From a phage: a DNA stretch of 43,293 bases. Every line of letters begins with the position of its first letter. The first letter of the stretch is position 1. The DNA lies in sequence record PV357169.1; one strand, given 5' to 3'. A program made the position numbers and the translations under genes. A model generated the notes under the pieces. The model had not been told where the DNA came from. It saw nothing but the letters and a program-made list of their open reading frames with translations, and did not search any database. Shown in pieces: positions 1 through 43,293 of this stretch.

Positions 1-314
1 CACAGCGTGCTTACTCATTACCTGCTGATATTGGTTCTGGGGTTACTGTTGTAAGCCTTAGTCCTGCCGGAGTATTAGTACACTCTGCCGGTAATGTAGA
101 CTTAGGTGCACTTGCTGTTGCTAGTGGGGCCACTTCAGGAACATTAACTATACCTAATGCAGATACAACTAAGTCGTATAGCGTTCGCCCATGGGTAGAT
201 AATCCAGCTACTGTAAACGATACTGCTTCCTGCGCTGCTGGCGTAATTACAGTAAACAGGCCTGTAGCAGTAGGTGTCCAACTTCCATCTACAGTGGAAT
301 ACTTATTGTTTTAA
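1..314 (+). CDS. 3' part of a gene that starts at 43046 and crosses the contig junction (156 aa in total); hypothetical protein downstream of the tailspike
   Basis: Frame from ATG 43046 continues through the 91-nt end overlap to TAA at 312-314; product is Ser/Thr/Val/Ala/Gly-rich; followed directly by a hairpin terminator. Confidence 0.5.
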   Translation, partial: QRAYSLPADIGSGVTVVSLSPAGVLVHSAGNVDLGALAVASGATSGTLTIPNADTTKSYSVRPWVDNPATVNDTASCAAGVITVNRPVAVGVQLPSTVEYLLF

Positions 315-6984: not shown

Positions 6985-7452
6985 ATGTCTAAGTTTAAAG
7001 TTGGTGATAAAGTAGTACGCAAATCACCCGACGACAGCTCGTCGTTTAAGAAGCGCCAAGGGGATTTTGATTACTACACAGTTACAGCTATATCCTCAGG
7101 CGGTCACTGGTTACGGTTGAACAATTGTACTATCGATGGTGACTGGTACCCGTGGTATGCATCTAACTTTGAGCTGTACCAAGAGCCGGACGACGAGCTG
7201 CCACCGGTTCCAGCTAGTGTGGCTTACATGAACTCCAAGCGCGACCGCGGCAACGACCAGCGGCTAGTCCTAGAAAGATGCAGTTGGACTGATGAGAACC
7301 TACTCTACATCGGAATAGTTCCTAAAAAGAACAGCACCCGGGCAGAGCAGGAGATTGGTATTAATATGAGTCCTGATGCAGCCCTGCAACTAGCACACGA
7401 CCTTCGTCGCATGGCTATGGATATCAAACGTAAGGGGAAAGCAAATGCATAA
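6985..7452 (+). CDS. Hypothetical protein (155 aa)
   Basis: GGAGGG RBS 6 nt upstream of ATG 6985 (track starts at TTG 6979). Confidence 0.6.
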   Translation: MSKFKVGDKVVRKSPDDSSSFKKRQGDFDYYTVTAISSGGHWLRLNNCTIDGDWYPWYASNFELYQEPDDELPPVPASVAYMNSKRDRGNDQRLVLERCSWTDENLLYIGIVPKKNSTRAEQEIGINMSPDAALQLAHDLRRMAMDIKRKGKANA

Positions 7453-7648
7453 AATTATCACGTACAAAATGCCGCCTAAGAGTATTGTGGTTGGCATTCC
7501 GTTCACTTGGGGATCATGCAGCTTTTGGGTTATAAAGGTAGAGGGTGGCTACATATACCGTCTGGACGATGGACGGAAGGTGGATGTACCCGAAAGAGAC
7601 ATTTTATTGTGTGGAATAGTATACGCTAACAGAATCGAGATTAAGTAA
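7445..7648 (+). CDS. Hypothetical protein (67 aa)
   Basis: AAGGGGA RBS; overlapping stop/start with neighbours. Confidence 0.5.
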   Translation: MHKIITYKMPPKSIVVGIPFTWGSCSFWVIKVEGGYIYRLDDGRKVDVPERDILLCGIVYANRIEIK

Positions 7649-17700: not shown

Positions 17701-17855
17701 CTCCACTGGATAAGATTAGGGCGCAATTAGAAAGGGAAACTACCGTTAAACCTAAAATTAAAACGGTGCCTGGACACTTAAGAAACACAAAGTGTCCGTG
17801 CGGTAGTGGTAGAAAGGCAAAGAATTGTTTGTGTGAGGACCCTAAATGGCCCTAA
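17697..17855 (+). CDS. Small protein with SEC-C-like metal-binding motif (CPCGSGRKAKNCLC)
   Basis: Internal ATG of track ORF 17613-17855; motif read directly. Confidence 0.4.
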   Translation: MTPLDKIRAQLERETTVKPKIKTVPGHLRNTKCPCGSGRKAKNCLCEDPKWP

Positions 17856-18268
17856 GAAAGATTACACGGGCGCAGATTCGCTCTGTGGCTATTAAGCTCG
17901 CCAAAGACCAGGGAGGCGTATGCCTCCTTTGTGGCAAACCTTTGGACTTTACAATCAAGGGGGTAACGGGTGATTCTGTTGTCGTTGACCACTGTCATAT
18001 TACTGGGCGTATTCGGGGTGCTCTTCATCGCTCGTGCAATGGAGGGGAAGGCAAGGTGGCATCTGCCGCTGGGCGCTGGATTGTTGGTAGCATGCAATCT
18101 CCTGGGGCTATTGCTGAATCTCTGCGTAGGGTTGCCGACTACCTAGACCGAGAGCCAACGGATATGCTATACTATACGCATAAGACGCCGGAAGAACTGG
18201 CACAGGCACAGAAGCTCAAGGCCCGCAAGGCCAGGGCACGACGCAAAGCACGGGAGACTATTAAATGA
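17846..18268 (+). CDS. Endonuclease VII-like Holliday-junction resolvase
   Basis: VVVDHCHITGRIRGALHRSCNGGEG matches the His-Me finger pattern of T4 endonuclease VII. Confidence 0.7.
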   Translation: MALRKITRAQIRSVAIKLAKDQGGVCLLCGKPLDFTIKGVTGDSVVVDHCHITGRIRGALHRSCNGGEGKVASAAGRWIVGSMQSPGAIAESLRRVADYLDREPTDMLYYTHKTPEELAQAQKLKARKARARRKARETIK

Positions 18269-36363: not shown

Positions 36364-37353
36364 ATGGCATTCAGCTGGCAAGAACAAATCAAGCCAGCTG
36401 GTACCCAGGATATCCAGTGCGATATTGAGTATTTGGACAAGTCCTATATTCATGTATACCTAGACGGTGCGGAAACCACTGGGTACACCTGGACCAGCGC
36501 TACTAATATAAGATTAAATTCGGCCCTAACTGCGAACACTACAGTGCTTCTCATTCGTAAGACTGAGCGCGAGTATCTGTATATTGAGTTTGCTAGCGGC
36601 TCTCCGTTCATCGAGGTGAACGTAGATTCTCAAAATACACAGTTCTTGCACTTGGCGCAAGAGCTTGTGGAAGGCAGGGCTATCCCCGGATTCTACGGGG
36701 ATATAAGCATGAACGGGTACCGCATCACGAATGTATCAGACCCGGTGGACTTGCAAGATGCTGCTACCAAGCACTACGTAGACTCTCGTATTGATGCAGA
36801 GCACGCCGCTTGGGTATCCGCTGATGCCACCATCAAATCCTACGTTGTTTCTGAGGACGCCAGGCTAGACACCCGCATCGACACAGAACGCGCCGCTAGG
36901 AAGGCTGCGGACGATGCCTTGAGTATGCGTACCTCTGCTCTGGAAAACACCTTTATAAGTGGTGTAGAAACAGTAAGCTACCCGTGGAGCACGGTGCTTA
37001 CAGAGGATACAGACGAGGTAACTCCAGGGCTAAAGTTTACTAAGGCTATAGTAGAACTTAATGGTGTTGGGCAGATTCGTGGCTACAGTTTTGAGATTGT
37101 AGATAACACCATAATGTTTGCCGAGACTCTCCCTGCAGGAACGATCGTAGCTGCTCGATTAGGTGCTGATGTAACTGCAGGGGACGGTTTCGCTACACAA
37201 GCATCCGTAGACCACTTAGCCAACTCCTTAGGGGCTTTGGCGTACCTAGGCAAAGCAGAGGCTGTGGAGGATGCAACCGGTGCTGAGGACGTGGTGAATC
37301 AACTAAATGCATTACTAGCAGCACTACGTGCCAGCGGAGTAGTAACATCCTAA
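36364..37353 (+). CDS. Tail fibre protein with T7 gp17-like N-terminal adaptor domain
   Basis: N-terminus loosely resembles the recalled T7 gp17 N-terminus; position before the terminase genes. Confidence 0.6.
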   Translation: MAFSWQEQIKPAGTQDIQCDIEYLDKSYIHVYLDGAETTGYTWTSATNIRLNSALTANTTVLLIRKTEREYLYIEFASGSPFIEVNVDSQNTQFLHLAQELVEGRAIPGFYGDISMNGYRITNVSDPVDLQDAATKHYVDSRIDAEHAAWVSADATIKSYVVSEDARLDTRIDTERAARKAADDALSMRTSALENTFISGVETVSYPWSTVLTEDTDEVTPGLKFTKAIVELNGVGQIRGYSFEIVDNTIMFAETLPAGTIVAARLGADVTAGDGFATQASVDHLANSLGALAYLGKAEAVEDATGAEDVVNQLNALLAALRASGVVTS

Positions 37354-37365
37354 CAGGAGGATCAT

Positions 37366-37668
37366 ATGGCAGGGGCGGCTAAACGCAGCCGTCTCTCGGA
37401 GCTGCATCGCATGTTCACAGAGGCTTTGATTGAAGAGATCAAACAGTCTAAAGAAGATGAGGTGCCGCTCCCGGCCGCAGATAAGTCAGTCATCGCTAAA
37501 TTCTTGAAGGATAATGATATCACTGCGGATGCAGATTCCGAGGAGATGCAGGACCTTCGTGATGAATTTGATGATGAACTAGCGGCACGCAGAGAGGCGC
37601 GTAAACAAGAAATTTTAGGTAAGATTAGTGGGTCTGACTCTGAGGATTTACTAGAAGGAATTGTCTAA
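37366..37668 (+). CDS. Terminase small subunit (putative)
   Basis: 100-aa acidic protein immediately upstream of the large terminase. Confidence 0.5.
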   Translation: MAGAAKRSRLSELHRMFTEALIEEIKQSKEDEVPLPAADKSVIAKFLKDNDITADADSEEMQDLRDEFDDELAARREARKQEILGKISGSDSEDLLEGIV

Positions 37669-39524
37669 TGGTATCGGCGAAGACTGCGCGAAGACTGCGC
37701 ATGCTCAACCAGAAACTTGCCGGCTATAGTGCGAATCCGCGCAGTATTCCCAAAGAGGAGCGCGAGGATATCGCCATGATGATGGCGGCTACCCTCGGCA
37801 ATTTTAGGGAGTTCGCATATATAGGTATGCGCTTCCTGGGCTTTACGCTCACGGAGATGCAAGCCGATATTGCAGAGTACATGCAGAAAGGTCCTAGGAA
37901 GCGCATGGTGGCTGCACAGCGTGGTGAGGCTAAATCTACACTAGCTGCGCTGTATGCTGTCTGGCGGCTCATCCAGGACCAATCCTGCCGTATACTGATT
38001 GTATCCGGTGCGGAGAAGCAGGCGTCCGACGTTGCGAACTTAATCATTCGTATGCTGGAAACCTGGCCTCTGTTGTGTTACCTGAAGGCCGACCCTACTC
38101 GTGGGGACCGTACTTCATTTGAAGGCTATGACGTCAACTGCGACTTGAAACCGCTGGATAAGTCTGCCAGCGTAGCTTGTGTCGGTATCACTGCATCCCT
38201 GCAAGGGAAGCGTGCTGACCTGTTGATTCCAGATGATATTGAGACCACCAAGAACGGTTTGACACAAACCCAGCGTGAGCAGTTGCTGATGATTTCGAAA
38301 GACTTCGCGGCTATCTGTACGCACGGGGATACGCTGTACCTGGGTACACCACAGACCAAGGACAGTATTTATAAAACCCTGCCGGGGCGTGGTTTCGAGG
38401 TCCGAGTGTGGCCTGGACGCATCCCGTCAGTTGAAATGGAAGAACGATATGGAAGTACACTTGCTCCTTATATACTGCAGCTCATTGAGCGGGGTTATAA
38501 ACGAACCGGGTTCGGAGTAGATGGGACGTTAGGTGAGAGCACTGACACCGGTCGATACGACGAGGATGCGCTGATTGAGAAGGAGCTGGACTTCGGCCCA
38601 GAGGGTTTCCAGCTGCAATACATGCTTGACACAACCTTGTCTGATCAGATGCGCACCCGTATCAAGTTGTCGGATATGCTCGTGTACTCTGGTAGCCTAG
38701 ATTCCTCTCCTGAGACCTTCTCCTACATTGCGGACCGTCGGTACTTGTACCAGCATGAGCATGAGGGGATTATGGGGCAGCAGATGTACTCCCCGGCATT
38801 CTATGGAGATATGCATCTACCATATCAGCATAAGGTGCTAGTGGTGGACCCAGCGGGTTGTGGTGGGGATGAAGTGTCCTACGCTGCAGGCGGTGCTGCT
38901 AACTCGTACATTCACTTATTCTCCGTTGGGGGTTTCCAAGGAGGTGTAAGCACTGAGAATATTGATAAGCTCATTGATTTGTGCGTAGAGTTGGACATCT
39001 CAGACATGGTGGTGGAGAGTAACATGGGGCACGGTACTGTGTCTATGCTGATCCTGAACCGCCTAAGAGAGCGTCGCCTTGCTGGTATTGGTGTGCGCGA
39101 CATCAACAACACCACGCAGAAAGAGCGCCGTATTATCGACACAATCAGCCCTGTAACTCGACGCCATCGCCTGGTGGTGCATGAGCGTGCTATTCAAGAT
39201 GATATTGGGACTTGTATGCTCTACTCCCGAGACCGTCGGTGGTTGTACTCTGCGTTCGCACAGCTCGCAGGTATTACGTACGACCGAGGGAGTTTAGCGA
39301 AGGATGACCGAGCAGACGCCATCGCTATGATGGTGGCAGTACTGAATGGACACCTGGTAGAAGACGAGAAAGTAGTAGCTGAGCGTGAGTCCGAGAAGAT
39401 GGCCCTGGCCTTCATTGAGAACCCACTGGATTGGGCACAGAGTAAATTGTCTAAGGGACTTCGCGGTGTAGCGGCTCGGTTGCAGAACCGTGGCAGAGGT
39501 AAACAACATAGAGGAAGAAGATAA
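37668..39524 (+). CDS. Terminase large subunit (T7 gp19-like)
   Basis: ACVGITASLQGKRADLLIPDDIE and RILIVSGAEKQASDV closely parallel recalled T7 gp19 segments. Confidence 0.9.
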   Translation: MVSAKTARRLRMLNQKLAGYSANPRSIPKEEREDIAMMMAATLGNFREFAYIGMRFLGFTLTEMQADIAEYMQKGPRKRMVAAQRGEAKSTLAALYAVWRLIQDQSCRILIVSGAEKQASDVANLIIRMLETWPLLCYLKADPTRGDRTSFEGYDVNCDLKPLDKSASVACVGITASLQGKRADLLIPDDIETTKNGLTQTQREQLLMISKDFAAICTHGDTLYLGTPQTKDSIYKTLPGRGFEVRVWPGRIPSVEMEERYGSTLAPYILQLIERGYKRTGFGVDGTLGESTDTGRYDEDALIEKELDFGPEGFQLQYMLDTTLSDQMRTRIKLSDMLVYSGSLDSSPETFSYIADRRYLYQHEHEGIMGQQMYSPAFYGDMHLPYQHKVLVVDPAGCGGDEVSYAAGGAANSYIHLFSVGGFQGGVSTENIDKLIDLCVELDISDMVVESNMGHGTVSMLILNRLRERRLAGIGVRDINNTTQKERRIIDTISPVTRRHRLVVHERAIQDDIGTCMLYSRDRRWLYSAFAQLAGITYDRGSLAKDDRADAIAMMVAVLNGHLVEDEKVVAERESEKMALAFIENPLDWAQSKLSKGLRGVAARLQNRGRGKQHRGRR

Positions 39525-39901
39525 TGGCATCAATCATCGCGGCTAAAGCTGCGGACGTCCAGTACGCTATTGTAGGTAAGAGCCAGAACCTCGAGAAAGA
39601 GGTGGCCCCGGATTATAATGCCGGGTTTATTGGTACGGGTGCACTGGATAAACTCAACGCTTTCTTTACCTACATGGAGTCCCAGGGATACTCGGCTACA
39701 GCTACTGGTGAGTCTTTTAAGGCTGACGGCACCTTGCAGGCTCGTCTATTTTCTATGCTATTCCAACTTAGCAAGACAGGTTATGTAGCACTCACTGGTA
39801 CCGGTATGCCCTTAGGTGAGGACTCTGGTACTGACTTCGACAATTCATTCAAGGCCCTACAGGCGGCTTTCGTTGCAGCTACTAATGCTGCTGCGGGATA
39901 A
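39524..39901 (+). CDS. Hypothetical protein (125 aa)
   Basis: ORF starting one base after the terminase stop. Confidence 0.5.
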   Translation: MASIIAAKAADVQYAIVGKSQNLEKEVAPDYNAGFIGTGALDKLNAFFTYMESQGYSATATGESFKADGTLQARLFSMLFQLSKTGYVALTGTGMPLGEDSGTDFDNSFKALQAAFVAATNAAAG

Positions 39902-39914
39902 TAGGAGAATCTAT

Positions 39915-40097
39915 ATGGCAATTGCAAAAGCGACCCAAGTGCAACAGCAGGAGCTGCTGCGTCAGCTGAACATTCTCGGTAAGGATCTGTATGCTATCCT
40001 TACCCAGCCACAGGATGTAGTCCAGACCGGCGCAGCGTTCGACGCTAAGATTGCTGCCCTAGAAACAGCTATTACCGCTGTGAAGTCGGCTAGCTAA
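39915..40097 (+). CDS. Hypothetical protein (~60 aa)
   Basis: AGGAGA RBS upstream of ATG 39915. Confidence 0.45.
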   Translation: MAIAKATQVQQQELLRQLNILGKDLYAILTQPQDVVQTGAAFDAKIAALETAITAVKSAS

Positions 40098-40501
40098 TGT
40101 ATAAACTGGTCGCTGGGTTACTGCTCGCGGTTACTCTGACTGGTTGCTCAGCGACCTCTGCACTAACCGGCTTAGTTGGCTCTAAGCCGGAAGTATCTGC
40201 ACAGGTTGGTGCTGAGAATACTAAGCAGGTACTCGGGCTGAATAATAAGGTGGACTCCAGCACCACCAACAAAACTGATGTACAGGATTCTAACGTAGGT
40301 ACACTGGATACTTCTAGCAAGAAGCAAGTGCAGACTATTAGTACTGGCACAATCCAGGCAGAGCGCCTACAGGTAGTTAACAATGATAGTTACAGCCTTA
40401 TCCTCGCCGGATTAGCAGGGGCCAGCATTCCTTTGGTCTTCCTAGTAACCATTCTGGTGATTCGTAAGCTGTTCAGGAAGAAGGGTCAGCAGGATGATTA
40501 A
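40097..40501 (+). CDS. Unimolecular-spanin-like protein (N-terminal lipoprotein signal + C-terminal TM helix)
   Basis: Lipobox LTGC at residues 14-17; C-terminal hydrophobic helix followed by RKLFRKKG. Confidence 0.5.
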   Translation: MYKLVAGLLLAVTLTGCSATSALTGLVGSKPEVSAQVGAENTKQVLGLNNKVDSSTTNKTDVQDSNVGTLDTSSKKQVQTISTGTIQAERLQVVNNDSYSLILAGLAGASIPLVFLVTILVIRKLFRKKGQQDD

Positions 40502-40745
40502 AGTAGGGGATGTAGTTGGGGCAGACCTCGCTACCCGGGCAGGGGCAGCTGTTACTGGTGCTACAGTCTCAGGAGGCTGGTTGGCGGAGTTAATGAGTTG
40601 GAACTGGAGTGTGATCAGCTTCATTACTGCGACGGTATGTGCAGTGCTAACCCTGGCGTGGAATGCGTACTATAAACGACGCACATACAAGCTCCTAGAA
40701 GAGCACGCACGTAAGGGGGCGATTAAATATGAGTTTAAGGACTAG
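40494..40745 (+). CDS. Putative holin / pinholin (83 aa)
   Basis: One strongly hydrophobic TM segment, charged C-terminus; directly upstream of the endolysin. Confidence 0.45.
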   Translation: MIKVGDVVGADLATRAGAAVTGATVSGGWLAELMSWNWSVISFITATVCAVLTLAWNAYYKRRTYKLLEEHARKGAIKYEFKD

Positions 40746-41340
40746 GGTTATAGCAGCACTCGCCGGGGCGACCATGCTCGGCGGAGCTATTACTGAGGTA
40801 GTCCAACACAACGAGGGCTTGAGCCTTACAGCATACAAAGACAGTGCAGGCATCCCTACAATCTGCTACGGGGAGACAAAGGGCGTCAAAATGGGCCAGA
40901 GAGCCACACTGAGCGATTGTCAGAAGCAACTGATAGAATCAGCAGGGGAGCATGCAAAGGCTCTTGACGGGCTTCCTATGCAGCTCTCTGACGTAGCCTT
41001 AGTTGGGTCCATAGACTTCATTTATAACGTAGGCGTAGCTAGCTTCAATGGCAGCGCCGTGAAACGGCATCTCAAAAACCTTGATTATGCAGCGGCTGGA
41101 AAGGCTGTGCTGGACTGGCGTTACATTAGTAAGTACCAGCAGAAGTCCCCAGGAACTGGTTGGGTTTATAAGGGTAGCAACCGCTGGATTTTCGACTGCT
41201 CCCAGTATATTAACGGGCAGCGCAATAAGGTATGCTGGGGCCTATGGGAACGTAGGCAGTGGCAAGCAAAGGCTATTGGTAATCGGTATGACTCATTGGA
41301 GTCTGCTGTTAATGCACTCATGAAAGGACAGGGGATATAA
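40729..41340 (+). CDS. Endolysin, T4-lysozyme-like muramidase with N-terminal SAR-type hydrophobic segment
   Basis: Catalytic pattern E-x8-D-x5-T (NEGLSLTAYKDSAGIPTICYGET); N-terminal VIAALAGATMLGGAI. Confidence 0.7.
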   Translation: MSLRTRVIAALAGATMLGGAITEVVQHNEGLSLTAYKDSAGIPTICYGETKGVKMGQRATLSDCQKQLIESAGEHAKALDGLPMQLSDVALVGSIDFIYNVGVASFNGSAVKRHLKNLDYAAAGKAVLDWRYISKYQQKSPGTGWVYKGSNRWIFDCSQYINGQRNKVCWGLWERRQWQAKAIGNRYDSLESAVNALMKGQGI

Positions 41341-42995
41341 TGGCACTTACAAATTTAATTTACAATGCGAGCAAGAATAATGACCGTGAACAGTGGCGTC
41401 GTAGTCTTGTAGAGGCAGGGTTAACACTTGTTGATGGTAGCTTTGAAGAGGGTGCTACTGCAAACAGTAAAACTGATGCTGTTTGGCATATTGCCGGTGG
41501 TCAGTGTTATACGTGGGATGCCACATTCCCTAAAACCGTTCCTGCTGCCTCAACCCCAGAAACTTCTGGCGGTGTTGGTTCAGGCGCATGGGTGAGTGTT
41601 GGCGATGCAAGTTTGAGATCGGACCTCTCAAGCACAGACGTCGGCAGAGGTGCCTCTTTAATTGGGACAACTGACGGTAGTAATGTGCAAGAGGCTTTGG
41701 ATGATATTAATAACTCAATATACCAGGACCCTCTTACCAAATGGCATCTTGGTGGTACGCTAAAAATAAAGCAGGGAGTGTATGATGTATCCTCAGCACT
41801 TACCCTCGATTATGGCAATTATGATGCTTCGTTTATAGGCTCTCCTGGTGTTCGCGCTCATTACGAAGGCGAGAACATGGCAGAAACCATCTTTAATTGT
41901 CAGGTTGCTGATTTTAACTTGAAGATGCTAGGAGATACCGTTGGGGCGACACAACGTGTACACGCATATGATTATCTGGGGAACATTACGCTTAAAGGTT
42001 CGGGATCGTCTTATGGTCTTGTTGTATCCAGTAAAGCATATACTAAGTTAGAGAACATAGTATCTTACGGACATACCAACGGGGAAGGTTTACGAACAGA
42101 TGGCGTTTTAACGTCGGAACTGGATAATGTGTACCTGCAGGCGAATCGTATTGGGTGGCGAGCGGTTAATTATGATGATGTGTCAGAACTTAATGCAATT
42201 ACGGTCAACAGATTAACGGCAAGCCAGAATACACAATGGGGTATTCTTGGCGACAGATGGGGTGCAGGGACTACCATCAACAGCCTTACCTGTGAGGGTA
42301 ACGGCACGCAAGGTAATGCTGGAACTGGCGGTATGCAGATTGCCGTGAACGGTCTTAATGGATCATGTGCTTTGGTGCTTAACAACCCATATTTCGAGGG
42401 TAATGCCGGTGGTTCTGACCTTGCCATTGATAACACGGGAACGCGCCCAGTAACCGTAATTATTAACGGCGGCGGCTTCCATCGTGTTAGTAATACGGCT
42501 TACACCATAAACAACTTAAATATTACAAGTTCTGGCGGGGGTAAAGTAACCGTAATTCTCAATGGTACGACATTCCAGAGCGCGGGTTCTTATGCCCCAA
42601 GCAGCACGCGACCGTTCTGGGTTACTGGCGCTAATTGTGAAGTAATCGACATTGGCTGCACATTCACGGAGCAAACCAGCAAGAATACTTCTGTCTCTGC
42701 TGGAAGTATTCCTCGTTCTGGAAGGATTAGTGCCGCGGGTGGCATAGGAATTGCGCCTGGTGTTTCATCAGTAAACGTAGTAGCTACGGGGGTATATGAT
42801 GTAGTTTTTTCTCATGAATTATCTACATATCTTGATGGGTATGTGGTACAGATAACGCCAATATCGGCGGGTGACTCCGTGGCTTGTGATGTTGAATATT
42901 TCAGCACAACCCGATTCAGGGTTACATTGAGGAACACTGTCAGCGGCGCTGGCATAGCGAGTGCATTCGCTTATAGTGTCACAAGGCTTGTATAA
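41340..42995 (+). CDS. Tailspike protein, probable polysaccharide depolymerase (beta-helix-like)
   Basis: 551 aa, Gly/Asn/Thr-rich repetitive segments typical of parallel beta-helices; right-end position. Confidence 0.6.
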   Translation: MALTNLIYNASKNNDREQWRRSLVEAGLTLVDGSFEEGATANSKTDAVWHIAGGQCYTWDATFPKTVPAASTPETSGGVGSGAWVSVGDASLRSDLSSTDVGRGASLIGTTDGSNVQEALDDINNSIYQDPLTKWHLGGTLKIKQGVYDVSSALTLDYGNYDASFIGSPGVRAHYEGENMAETIFNCQVADFNLKMLGDTVGATQRVHAYDYLGNITLKGSGSSYGLVVSSKAYTKLENIVSYGHTNGEGLRTDGVLTSELDNVYLQANRIGWRAVNYDDVSELNAITVNRLTASQNTQWGILGDRWGAGTTINSLTCEGNGTQGNAGTGGMQIAVNGLNGSCALVLNNPYFEGNAGGSDLAIDNTGTRPVTVIINGGGFHRVSNTAYTINNLNITSSGGGKVTVILNGTTFQSAGSYAPSSTRPFWVTGANCEVIDIGCTFTEQTSKNTSVSAGSIPRSGRISAAGGIGIAPGVSSVNVVATGVYDVVFSHELSTYLDGYVVQITPISAGDSVACDVEYFSTTRFRVTLRNTVSGAGIASAFAYSVTRLV

Positions 42996-43002
42996 TAGCA
43001 AA

Positions 43003-43024
43003 GCCCCGCTTCGGCGGGGTTTCC
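43003..43024 (+). terminator. Hairpin with TTCG loop (CCCCGC-TTCG-GCGGGG) followed by TTTCC
   Basis: Directly after the tailspike stop. Confidence 0.5.
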
Positions 43025-43045
43025 TAGAAAAACAATGAGGTTTAT

Positions 43046-43293
43046 ATGAACGAAATGTTCTCACAAGATGGTAAAGGTTCAACGGGAATCTTAACTAATA
43101 AACAAGCAGTGGCTCGACACTTCGGAGTTAAGCAATCAGAGGTTGTTTACTTCTCAGTGGGTGCTCTGCTTGCTGGTTACAAAGTCATCTATGACAAAGT
43201 GACACAGCGTGCTTACTCATTACCTGCTGATATTGGTTCTGGGGTTACTGTTGTAAGCCTTAGTCCTGCCGGAGTATTAGTACACTCTGCCGG
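43046..43293 (+). CDS. 5' part of the junction-spanning gene (continues at 1-314 after removing the 91-nt overlap)
   Basis: ATG with GAGG RBS; the ORF runs off the end of the window. Confidence 0.5.
   Translation, partial: MNEMFSQDGKGSTGILTNKQAVARHFGVKQSEVVYFSVGALLAGYKVIYDKVTQRAYSLPADIGSGVTVVSLSPAGVLVHSA
43203..43293 (+). repeat. 91-nt exact duplicate of window positions 1-91 (circular-assembly overlap)
   Basis: Seen directly; identical base for base. Confidence 0.95.

Follow-up and report, generated by a model that had tools for sequence, protein, structure and literature searches.

How does the phage in sequence record PV357169.1 lyse its host, and is there anything unusual in the genes with which it would do so? 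The question is raised by positions 40097 to 41340 of this 43,293-nt stretch of DNA, which we refer to at its full length as the window. A preliminary description had read the locus as a lysis cassette made up of a lipoprotein resembling a unimolecular spanin (u-spanin), a putative holin with a single transmembrane domain (TMD), and an endolysin with a possible signal-anchor-release (SAR) domain, in a gene order that it called less common. We found the three open reading frames (ORFs) where they had been placed, as overlapping genes on the plus strand (Table 1). Our analysis indicates that they very probably form a complete lysis module of the genus Drulisvirus, acting by a pathway in which a pinholin, a SAR endolysin, and a u-spanin would take their turns. 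The observation is thus confirmed and the reading placed on it is supported, and the feature is an ordinary one that has been known since 2015.

In that year, Eriksson et al. described the cassette in phages KP34, SU503, SU552A, NTUH-K2044-K1-1, and F19 (PMC4411677). For this group, then named "Kp34likevirus," the same paper reported a holin of 83 residues and a single TMD, which it argued was a pinholin, together with a SAR endolysin and a u-spanin; it also published the spanin-holin-endolysin order, and the cassette was among the arguments for creating the genus (PMC4411677). The description has since been repeated for phages JKP2 (PMC10194101) and Minorna (PMC6554615), and for Minorna, the Center for Phage Technology gave the spanin orthologue the annotation "unimolecular spanin," while the genome announcement called it T1-like (PMC6554615). 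The window carries the same three genes as Klebsiella phage KP34 and other drulisviruses, in the same order and in the same place, with the large-terminase gene and two small ORFs ahead of them and the tailspike gene behind, and nothing of substance in the cassette differs. The gene order is indeed less common across phages generally. It is nonetheless the published signature of the genus and is therefore not unusual for this phage, and it is also found in the Phimunavirus phage Phoria (u-spanin, holin, and endolysin at 1447-2684).

The spanin

The product of the first gene begins with MYKLVAGLLLAVTLTGC, in which K3 is followed by a hydrophobic core and the lipobox LTGC, with Cys17 as the residue to be lipidated and Ser at +2. 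The mature periplasmic stretch of about 83 residues is rich in Ser, Thr, Val, and Gln and has no Cys beyond Cys17. The highest hydrophobicity in the protein lies in the uncharged segment S98-I122 (Kyte-Doolittle 19-residue mean, 2.4), after which comes a basic tail. Sequence inspection and hydropathy thus bear out the lipoprotein signal and the C-terminal transmembrane helix with a basic tail that had been noticed earlier. Asp at +2 after the lipidated Cys is the Lol-avoidance signal; since the residue here is Ser, the protein would be sorted to the outer membrane.

Homology carries the identification further. The protein matches PHROG 1804, "Rz-like spanin," across its full length (4.3e-50), and it shares 40% identity with gp11 of phage T1 over 125 of its 134 aa (E = 2e-25), in an alignment that runs from the lipobox to the cytoplasmic tail. 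The two proteins are of nearly equal length (133 aa in T1, 134 aa in the window) and have the same plan: an LSGC lipobox in T1 and LTGC in the window, Ser at +2 in both, a C-terminal TMD, a basic tail, and a common periplasmic motif, P-(D/E)-(V/I)-(S/T)-A-Q-x-G-x-E-N-x-K. T1 gp11 is the prototype u-spanin (Summer et al. 2007), and it reportedly also yields a shorter inhibitory product. Its gene complements a defect in λ Rz/Rz1 (Kongari et al. 2018, PMC6139136). The same study defined spanin families by 40% identity over 40% of length and placed KP34, F19, and NTUH-K2044-K1-1 in the T1 gp11 family (PMC6139136); by that definition, the window spanin, at 40% over 125 of its 134 aa, groups with T1 gp11. 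In a seven-member alignment reaching from Drexlerviridae to Autographiviridae, G16-C17-S18 and the motif P31..A35-Q36.G38.E40-N41.K43 are invariant, and every member has the C-terminal hydrophobic helix and the basic tail. A tblastn search with the spanin found relatives in 1,141 phage records, with identities of 94 to 99% in Drulisvirus (98% for the Minorna orthologue) and 38 to 52% in many T1-like Drexlerviridae and Pectobacterium phages of the genus Phimunavirus; the counterpart in phage ZL19 is 52% identical. The proposal of a u-spanin rather than a two-gene Rz/Rz1 pair is thereby supported, and the protein would belong to the T1 gp11 family.

A separate Rz/Rz1 pair elsewhere in the window would have spoken against this proposal, and neither the lipobox scan nor the hydropathy scan of the window turned one up. 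A scan that took every start codon in all six frames of the 43.3-kb window left the spanin ORF as the sole one with a convincing lipoprotein signal, and the hydropathy scan found no plus-strand ORF with the build of an i-spanin, namely an N-terminal TMD followed by a periplasmic domain of about 100 to 150 aa. Two candidates for a second lipobox gene were considered and set aside. One, with the motif WGSC, is an ORF at 7445-7648 (67 aa) with a weak signal that falls in a PHROG of unknown function; the other, with LVAC, lies out of frame inside the endonuclease VII gene (17846-18268) and matches no family. As for a shorter product of the spanin gene itself, the possible internal starts in frame are GTG or TTG codons only (52, 78, 113, and 121) and lack a Shine-Dalgarno-like sequence, save TTG113, which is preceded by a GGGG run and lies inside the TMD. 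An antisense ORF of 97 aa over the spanin gene (40383-40090) was also discarded, as a stop codon interrupts the same frame in Minorna.

Two side observations concern this gene in other phages. The record of Shigella phage SFN6B (NC_047929.1) has no coding sequence at the u-spanin locus (39975-40372 of that record), although the ORF there is intact and 99.3% identical; GenBank and RefSeq thus both have an annotation gap of the kind catalogued by Kongari et al. In addition, tblastn partially matched the N-terminal half of the mature spanin to 21 Campylobacter phage records and to a "lipoprotein" of an Enterobacter phage (N5822), and the mature protein may open with a module that other phage lipoproteins also have (compare the weak match to Cor discussed below).

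The holin and the endolysin

The preliminary description had proposed a holin with a single transmembrane segment. The assignment as a holin and the one strong segment both stand, but the protein is not just a generic holin; by the Pfam threshold, it falls in the family of the phage 21 holin S. One strongly hydrophobic segment spans approximately residues 37 to 58 (Kyte-Doolittle value, 1.8) and is followed by a basic C terminus (KRR..K..RK..K), and the segment from residue 16 to 31 is weakly hydrophobic, with Gly, Ala, Ser, and Thr making up 75% of it. The protein scores 27.6 bits against Pfam PF04971, "Bacteriophage P21 holin S" (gathering score, 26; E = 2.8e-6; residues 27 to 67), and matches the holins of PHROG 20 at 8e-17. 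BLASTP aligned it with EssD of the prophage DLP12, a homologue of phage 21 S (E = 7e-5); the alignment starts at T21 (T15 in EssD), takes in the Gly-rich end of TMD1, and continues over TMD2 into the basic tail. The N-terminal segment is thus, by alignment, a probable homologue of the SAR-type TMD1 of the pinholin, and G27 in this region is invariant in an eight-member alignment. The score above the Pfam gathering threshold and the Gly-rich segment aligned with TMD1 of S21 and EssD together fit a pinholin paired with a SAR endolysin. By that threshold, the holin is likely a member of the S family of phage 21, and it would make small holes that do not let the endolysin pass. Of 269 holin matches, 243 are at least 90% identical, and the holin of phage Kpn13 is 100% identical.

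The endolysin matches Pfam PF00959, Phage_lysozyme, over residues 27 to 135 (9.2e-21) and the endolysins of PHROG 7 (1.8e-34). The earlier call of a T4-lysozyme-like enzyme with a hydrophobic N terminus thus held, as a lysozyme of glycoside hydrolase family 24 (GH24); a match to the NCBIfam BgtA endolysin model was below the cut-off (42 versus 315 bits). At the N terminus, R4 and R6 precede VIAALAGATMLGGAIT, a stretch with a Kyte-Doolittle value of 1.8 in which Gly, Ala, Ser, and Thr account for 62% of residues 7 to 22, compared with 65% in the SAR segment of RrrD, the DLP12 endolysin. The best matches in the PDB are 3HDE and 4ZPU (RrrD), at E of about 6e-10. Both are aligned from residue 2, so that the N-terminal hydrophobic segment is included in the match. 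We take 3HDE to be the full-length SAR endolysin R21 of phage 21; the aligned 3HDE and 4ZPU sequences are nearly alike, and their start recurs in the translated DLP12 rrrD gene. With its closest solved relative aligned through the N-terminal segment, the endolysin earns the possible SAR domain that it had been given. Among eight endolysin homologues, the triad residues E29, D38, and T44 are invariant (the same motif stands at E35 in RrrD), and the basic-then-hydrophobic N terminus is present in all eight. These findings support a SAR-type GH24 lysozyme for which export by Sec, tethering, and release upon depolarization are predicted.

The candidate SAR segment contains no Cys, which excludes disulfide caging in the style of P1 Lyz and makes activation by refolding in the style of R21 likelier. 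An insertion of about 20 residues (approximately residues 140 to 160) and a C-terminal extension of about 14 residues are common to this endolysin and those of Phimunavirus, and a periplasmic disulfide may link the conserved Cys157 and Cys169. The Minorna announcement mentions "two predicted transmembrane domains" in its endolysin (PMC6554615). The sole other hydrophobic stretch in the window endolysin (approximately residues 85 to 103; Kyte-Doolittle value, about 1.3) lies inside the Phage_lysozyme match, and we infer that it is a buried helix rather than a TMD.

Comparison with other systems places the pair among known lysis genes. The S21 (EssD) pinholin and the R21 endolysin (RrrD; 3HDE, 3HDF, 4ZPU) of phage 21 and DLP12 are homologous to the holin and endolysin of the window. 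They differ in being accompanied by a two-component Rz/Rz1 spanin (rzpD/rzoD), whereas the window phage has a u-spanin. The window holin also differs in the shorter TMD1 equivalent bounded by charges (R15 and E32) and in the missing dual-start motif, and the window endolysin in the insertion and extension noted above. The related podophage phiKMV, of the Autographiviridae, also combines a pinholin with a SAR endolysin (Briers et al. 2011, cited in PMC4411677), but its genes stand in holin-endolysin-Rz/Rz1 order with a two-component spanin (PMC4411677). In a different podophage, KBNP1315, an endolysin reported to be of the SAR type lysed cells, and azide blocked the lysis (PMC4640515).

The proposed lysis pathway and its alternatives

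On the pathway that we favor, Sec would export the endolysin, and the weakly hydrophobic N-terminal SAR segment would hold the inactive enzyme at the inner membrane. Meanwhile, the 83-aa holin of the phage 21 S family would build up in the inner membrane and trigger at a set time, and the small holes so formed would collapse the proton-motive force. Depolarization would free the SAR segment, allowing the lysozyme (E29/D38/T44) to refold and degrade the peptidoglycan. The spanin, lipidated at Cys17, would sit in the outer membrane with its C-terminal helix in the inner membrane; because that helix remains there, a single polypeptide would cross the periplasm and pass through the mesh of murein. 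Degradation of the murein would set the spanin free to move and to disrupt the outer membrane, probably through fusion of the two membranes, the mechanism proposed for T1 gp11, and virions would be released.

Several observations weigh against this account. Every functional step in it is transferred from T1 gp11 and from S and R of phage 21. In the spanin, the Pfam model LPAM_1 scores 14.8 bits on the signal (cut-off, 20) and the NCBIfam model spanin2_3 scores 19 bits (cut-off, 80). AlphaFold2 (AF2), run on the spanin as a single sequence, gave a mean predicted local distance difference test (pLDDT) score of 57.5, with only the two terminal hydrophobic helices moderately confident, no strands, and values below 50 over most of residues 32 to 94. 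The model therefore says little about the periplasmic domain, for which the pattern of the T1 gp11 family is a short helix and then several predicted β strands. In the holin, the TMD1 equivalent is flanked by charges, R15 on one side and E32 on the other, and its uncharged part counts only 16 residues. Published predictors see one TMD in orthologous holins, as opposed to two in S21, and a dual-start motif is lacking from the holin, which starts MIKVGD and has M1 as its only in-frame Met before residue 34. Such a motif, from which both a holin and an antiholin are made, is typical of S21, although it is not required for membership in PF04971. Finally, the uncharged core of the endolysin, V7-T22, is only 16 residues long before E23, compared with 23 in RrrD and R21, and true SAR behavior is for that reason not certain.

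The short core also bears on the possibility that the endolysin is made with a cleavable Sec signal peptide and secreted, then kept inactive in the periplasm by some other means while the holin serves only as depolarizer and timer. A signal-peptide predictor did flag the orthologous endolysin of JKP2 (PMC10194101), and we grant this arrangement a small chance of being correct. From residue 2 onward, however, the N terminus can be aligned with the SAR segments of 3HDE and RrrD, and it has the Gly, Ala, Ser, and Thr content of the RrrD SAR segment. Moreover, E29 of the triad stands only 4 to 7 residues past the hydrophobic stretch. In the R21 structures, the sequence at that position packs into the active enzyme, so that cleavage here would remove what is packed into active R21. 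One could also suppose that the hydrophobic N terminus of the endolysin is incidental and that the holin is a canonical single-TMD holin making large holes, with lysis following the λ type of holin-endolysin route. Only one strong TMD was detected in the holin, in agreement with the TOPCONS and TMHMM predictions published for orthologous holins (PMC4411677, PMC10194101, PMC6554615), and the Pfam pinholin threshold is exceeded by a mere 1.6 bits. Still, the protein lies above that curated threshold, its gene is directly upstream of that of a SAR-endolysin homologue, and the conservation of the basic-then-hydrophobic endolysin N terminus in all eight homologues argues that it has a function. A large-hole route accordingly strikes us as improbable.

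It would be most surprising if, instead, the product of the first gene were an outer-membrane lipoprotein of another role, for example, a Cor-like agent of superinfection exclusion, and the phage had no spanin. What points that way is a weak match to PHROG 1119 (Cor; E = 0.0057) over the first 48 residues only, which comprise the signal peptide and the beginning of the mature sequence. Lipoproteins of the Cor type lack the C-terminal TMD that this protein has. Its counterpart T1 gp11, at the identity given above, is by experiment a spanin, and the gene lies within the lysis cassette in every relative examined.

The pathway of pinholin, SAR endolysin, and u-spanin thus remains our reading. All three lysis genes have homologues in T1-like Drexlerviridae, where they stand as holin-endolysin-u-spanin (T1, 42878-43982, and three relatives), and the T1-like holins align weakly with the window holin over the TMD and the tail (E = 6e-6), with a Gly in the N-terminal region invariant. 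T1 is a siphovirus of the Drexlerviridae in which the spanin gene comes last; the window phage is a podovirus of the Autographiviridae in which it comes first. From these comparisons, siphophages and podophages appear to have the cassette in common, its genes being cyclically permuted between them. A further proposal, which we consider rather doubtful, is that KP34-like, Phimunavirus, and T1-like phages have a topological variant of the pinholin in common and that a whole cassette of the T1 type was transferred between siphophages and podophages. In such a variant, the Gly-rich TMD1 equivalent may no longer insert, so that the holin may be made directly in the "activated" topology with the N terminus out and the C terminus in. 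The timing of lysis may then depend on neither a SAR-type TMD1 nor an antiholin from a dual start, and the cassette may have moved between the two kinds of phage with its cyclic change of order. Of the holins compared, the two closest homologues both have an acidic residue beside the Gly-rich segment, E32 in the window and Asp in ECO104 4-5-2.

Cassette layout, genome context, and significance

The positions of the lysis genes and their features are collected in Table 1. Their junctions are tight: TAATG at 40095-40099 leads into the spanin gene, the spanin and holin genes overlap by 8 nt (ATGATTAA at 40494-40501), the holin and endolysin genes overlap by 17 nt (40729-40745), and TAATG at 41338-41342 joins the endolysin gene to that of the tailspike. 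Read from the sequence, these overlaps suggest translational coupling. Codon changes relative to Minorna are mostly synonymous, with synonymous-to-nonsynonymous counts of 15:3 for the spanin, 12:2 for the holin, and 41:11 for the endolysin. These counts and the uniqueness of the lipoprotein signal speak against a chance occurrence of the features. A scan of 37000-43293 found sigma-70 promoter-like sites to be no commoner than in shuffled sequence, and a terminator scan of the same region found no convincing plus-strand terminator within the cassette.

Table 1. Genes and features of the lysis cassette in the window
Feature	Position	Strand	Basis and remarks
Unimolecular spanin gene, T1 gp11 family (predicted)	40097..40501	+	134 aa; PHROG 1804; T1 gp11 identity
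Lipoprotein signal peptide, lipobox LTGC	40097..40147	+	Cys17 codon 40145-40147; +2 = Ser; regex scan
Spanin periplasmic domain, aa 18-100	40148..40396	+	Composition; conserved motif
Spanin C-terminal transmembrane helix, aa 101-122	40397..40462	+	Kyte-Doolittle peak 2.4; AF2 helix 96-129
Spanin basic tail RKLFRKKGQQDD	40463-40498	+	After transmembrane helix
Holin gene, phage 21 S (pinholin) family (likely)	40494..40745	+	83 aa; PF04971, PHROG 20, EssD
Weakly hydrophobic Gly/Ala/Thr-rich holin segment, aa 16-31	40539..40586	+	75% G/A/S/T; aligns with EssD/S21 TMD1
Strong holin transmembrane segment, aa 37-58	40602..40667	+	Kyte-Doolittle 1.8; position conserved in 8-member alignment
SAR-type GH24 endolysin gene (predicted)	40729..41340	+	203 aa; PF00959, PHROG 7, 3HDE/4ZPU
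Candidate signal-anchor-release segment, aa 7-25, VIAALAGATMLGGAITEVV	40747..40803	+	Kyte-Doolittle 1.8; R4, R6 before; no Cys
Catalytic triad E29-x8-D38-x5-T44	40813..40860	+	Regex match; invariant in alignment

The surroundings of the cassette are those of its genus. A search with positions 39500-41400 of the window matched 250 phage records, nearly all of them Drulisvirus of Klebsiella, Escherichia, and Shigella (Autographiviridae, Slopekvirinae), with SFN6B as the best match at 98.7% identity across the full query. Over the whole window, Klebsiella phage KPV811 is the nearest record for the left 25 kb (95.9%), and SFN6B is the nearest for the right 18 kb (93.5%). The large ORFs all lie on the plus strand in the usual order of early genes, DNA metabolism, RNA polymerase, structural genes, terminase, lysis, and tailspike. 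By these similarities, the window is evidently a complete, mosaic Drulisvirus (KP34-like podophage) genome that is identical to no record searched.

Several further observations concern the neighbors of the cassette and the ends of the window. The two small ORFs between the large terminase and spanin genes are conserved (39524-39901, 125 aa, phrog_7128; 39915-40097, 60 aa, phrog_7375), and the hydropathy scan found no TMD in either. We considered the 60-aa ORF as a lysis partner kept in Phimunavirus and rejected it, as it has no similarity to the ORF in the same position in Phoria. Downstream, the 551-aa tailspike (41340-42995) carries a Tail_spike_N domain (PF18668, 7e-20). The closest genomes contain nothing nearly matching it past approximately 41600, which suggests a swapped receptor-binding or depolymerase module and hence a host specificity unlike that of SFN6B. 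Nine nucleotides past the tailspike stop codon lies a GC-rich hairpin (43004-43022, CCCCGC-TTCG-GCGGGG followed by TTT), plausibly the intrinsic terminator that ends the late operon. An exact direct repeat of 91 nt occupies both ends of the window (1-91 and 43203-43293), and a 156-aa ORF runs across the end-to-start junction, from 43046-43293 on to 92 and as far as about 315. Since an ORF crosses it, the repeat resembles the overlap of a circular assembly rather than a physical terminal repeat of a linear Drulisvirus genome. Residues 1 to 93 of the junction ORF match the N-terminal anchor domains of tailspikes (phrog_7992, 8e-59), and residues 90 to 156 match the last 67 residues of the tailspike family phrog_28781 (578 to 644 of 644); it looks like a second tailspike without its central enzymatic domain.

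Beyond correct annotation, the cassette matters little. Its SAR endolysin and u-spanin are of applied interest, as Drulisvirus phages are common therapy candidates. For the phage itself, the cassette confirms a typical Drulisvirus with a full three-step lysis system, spanin included.

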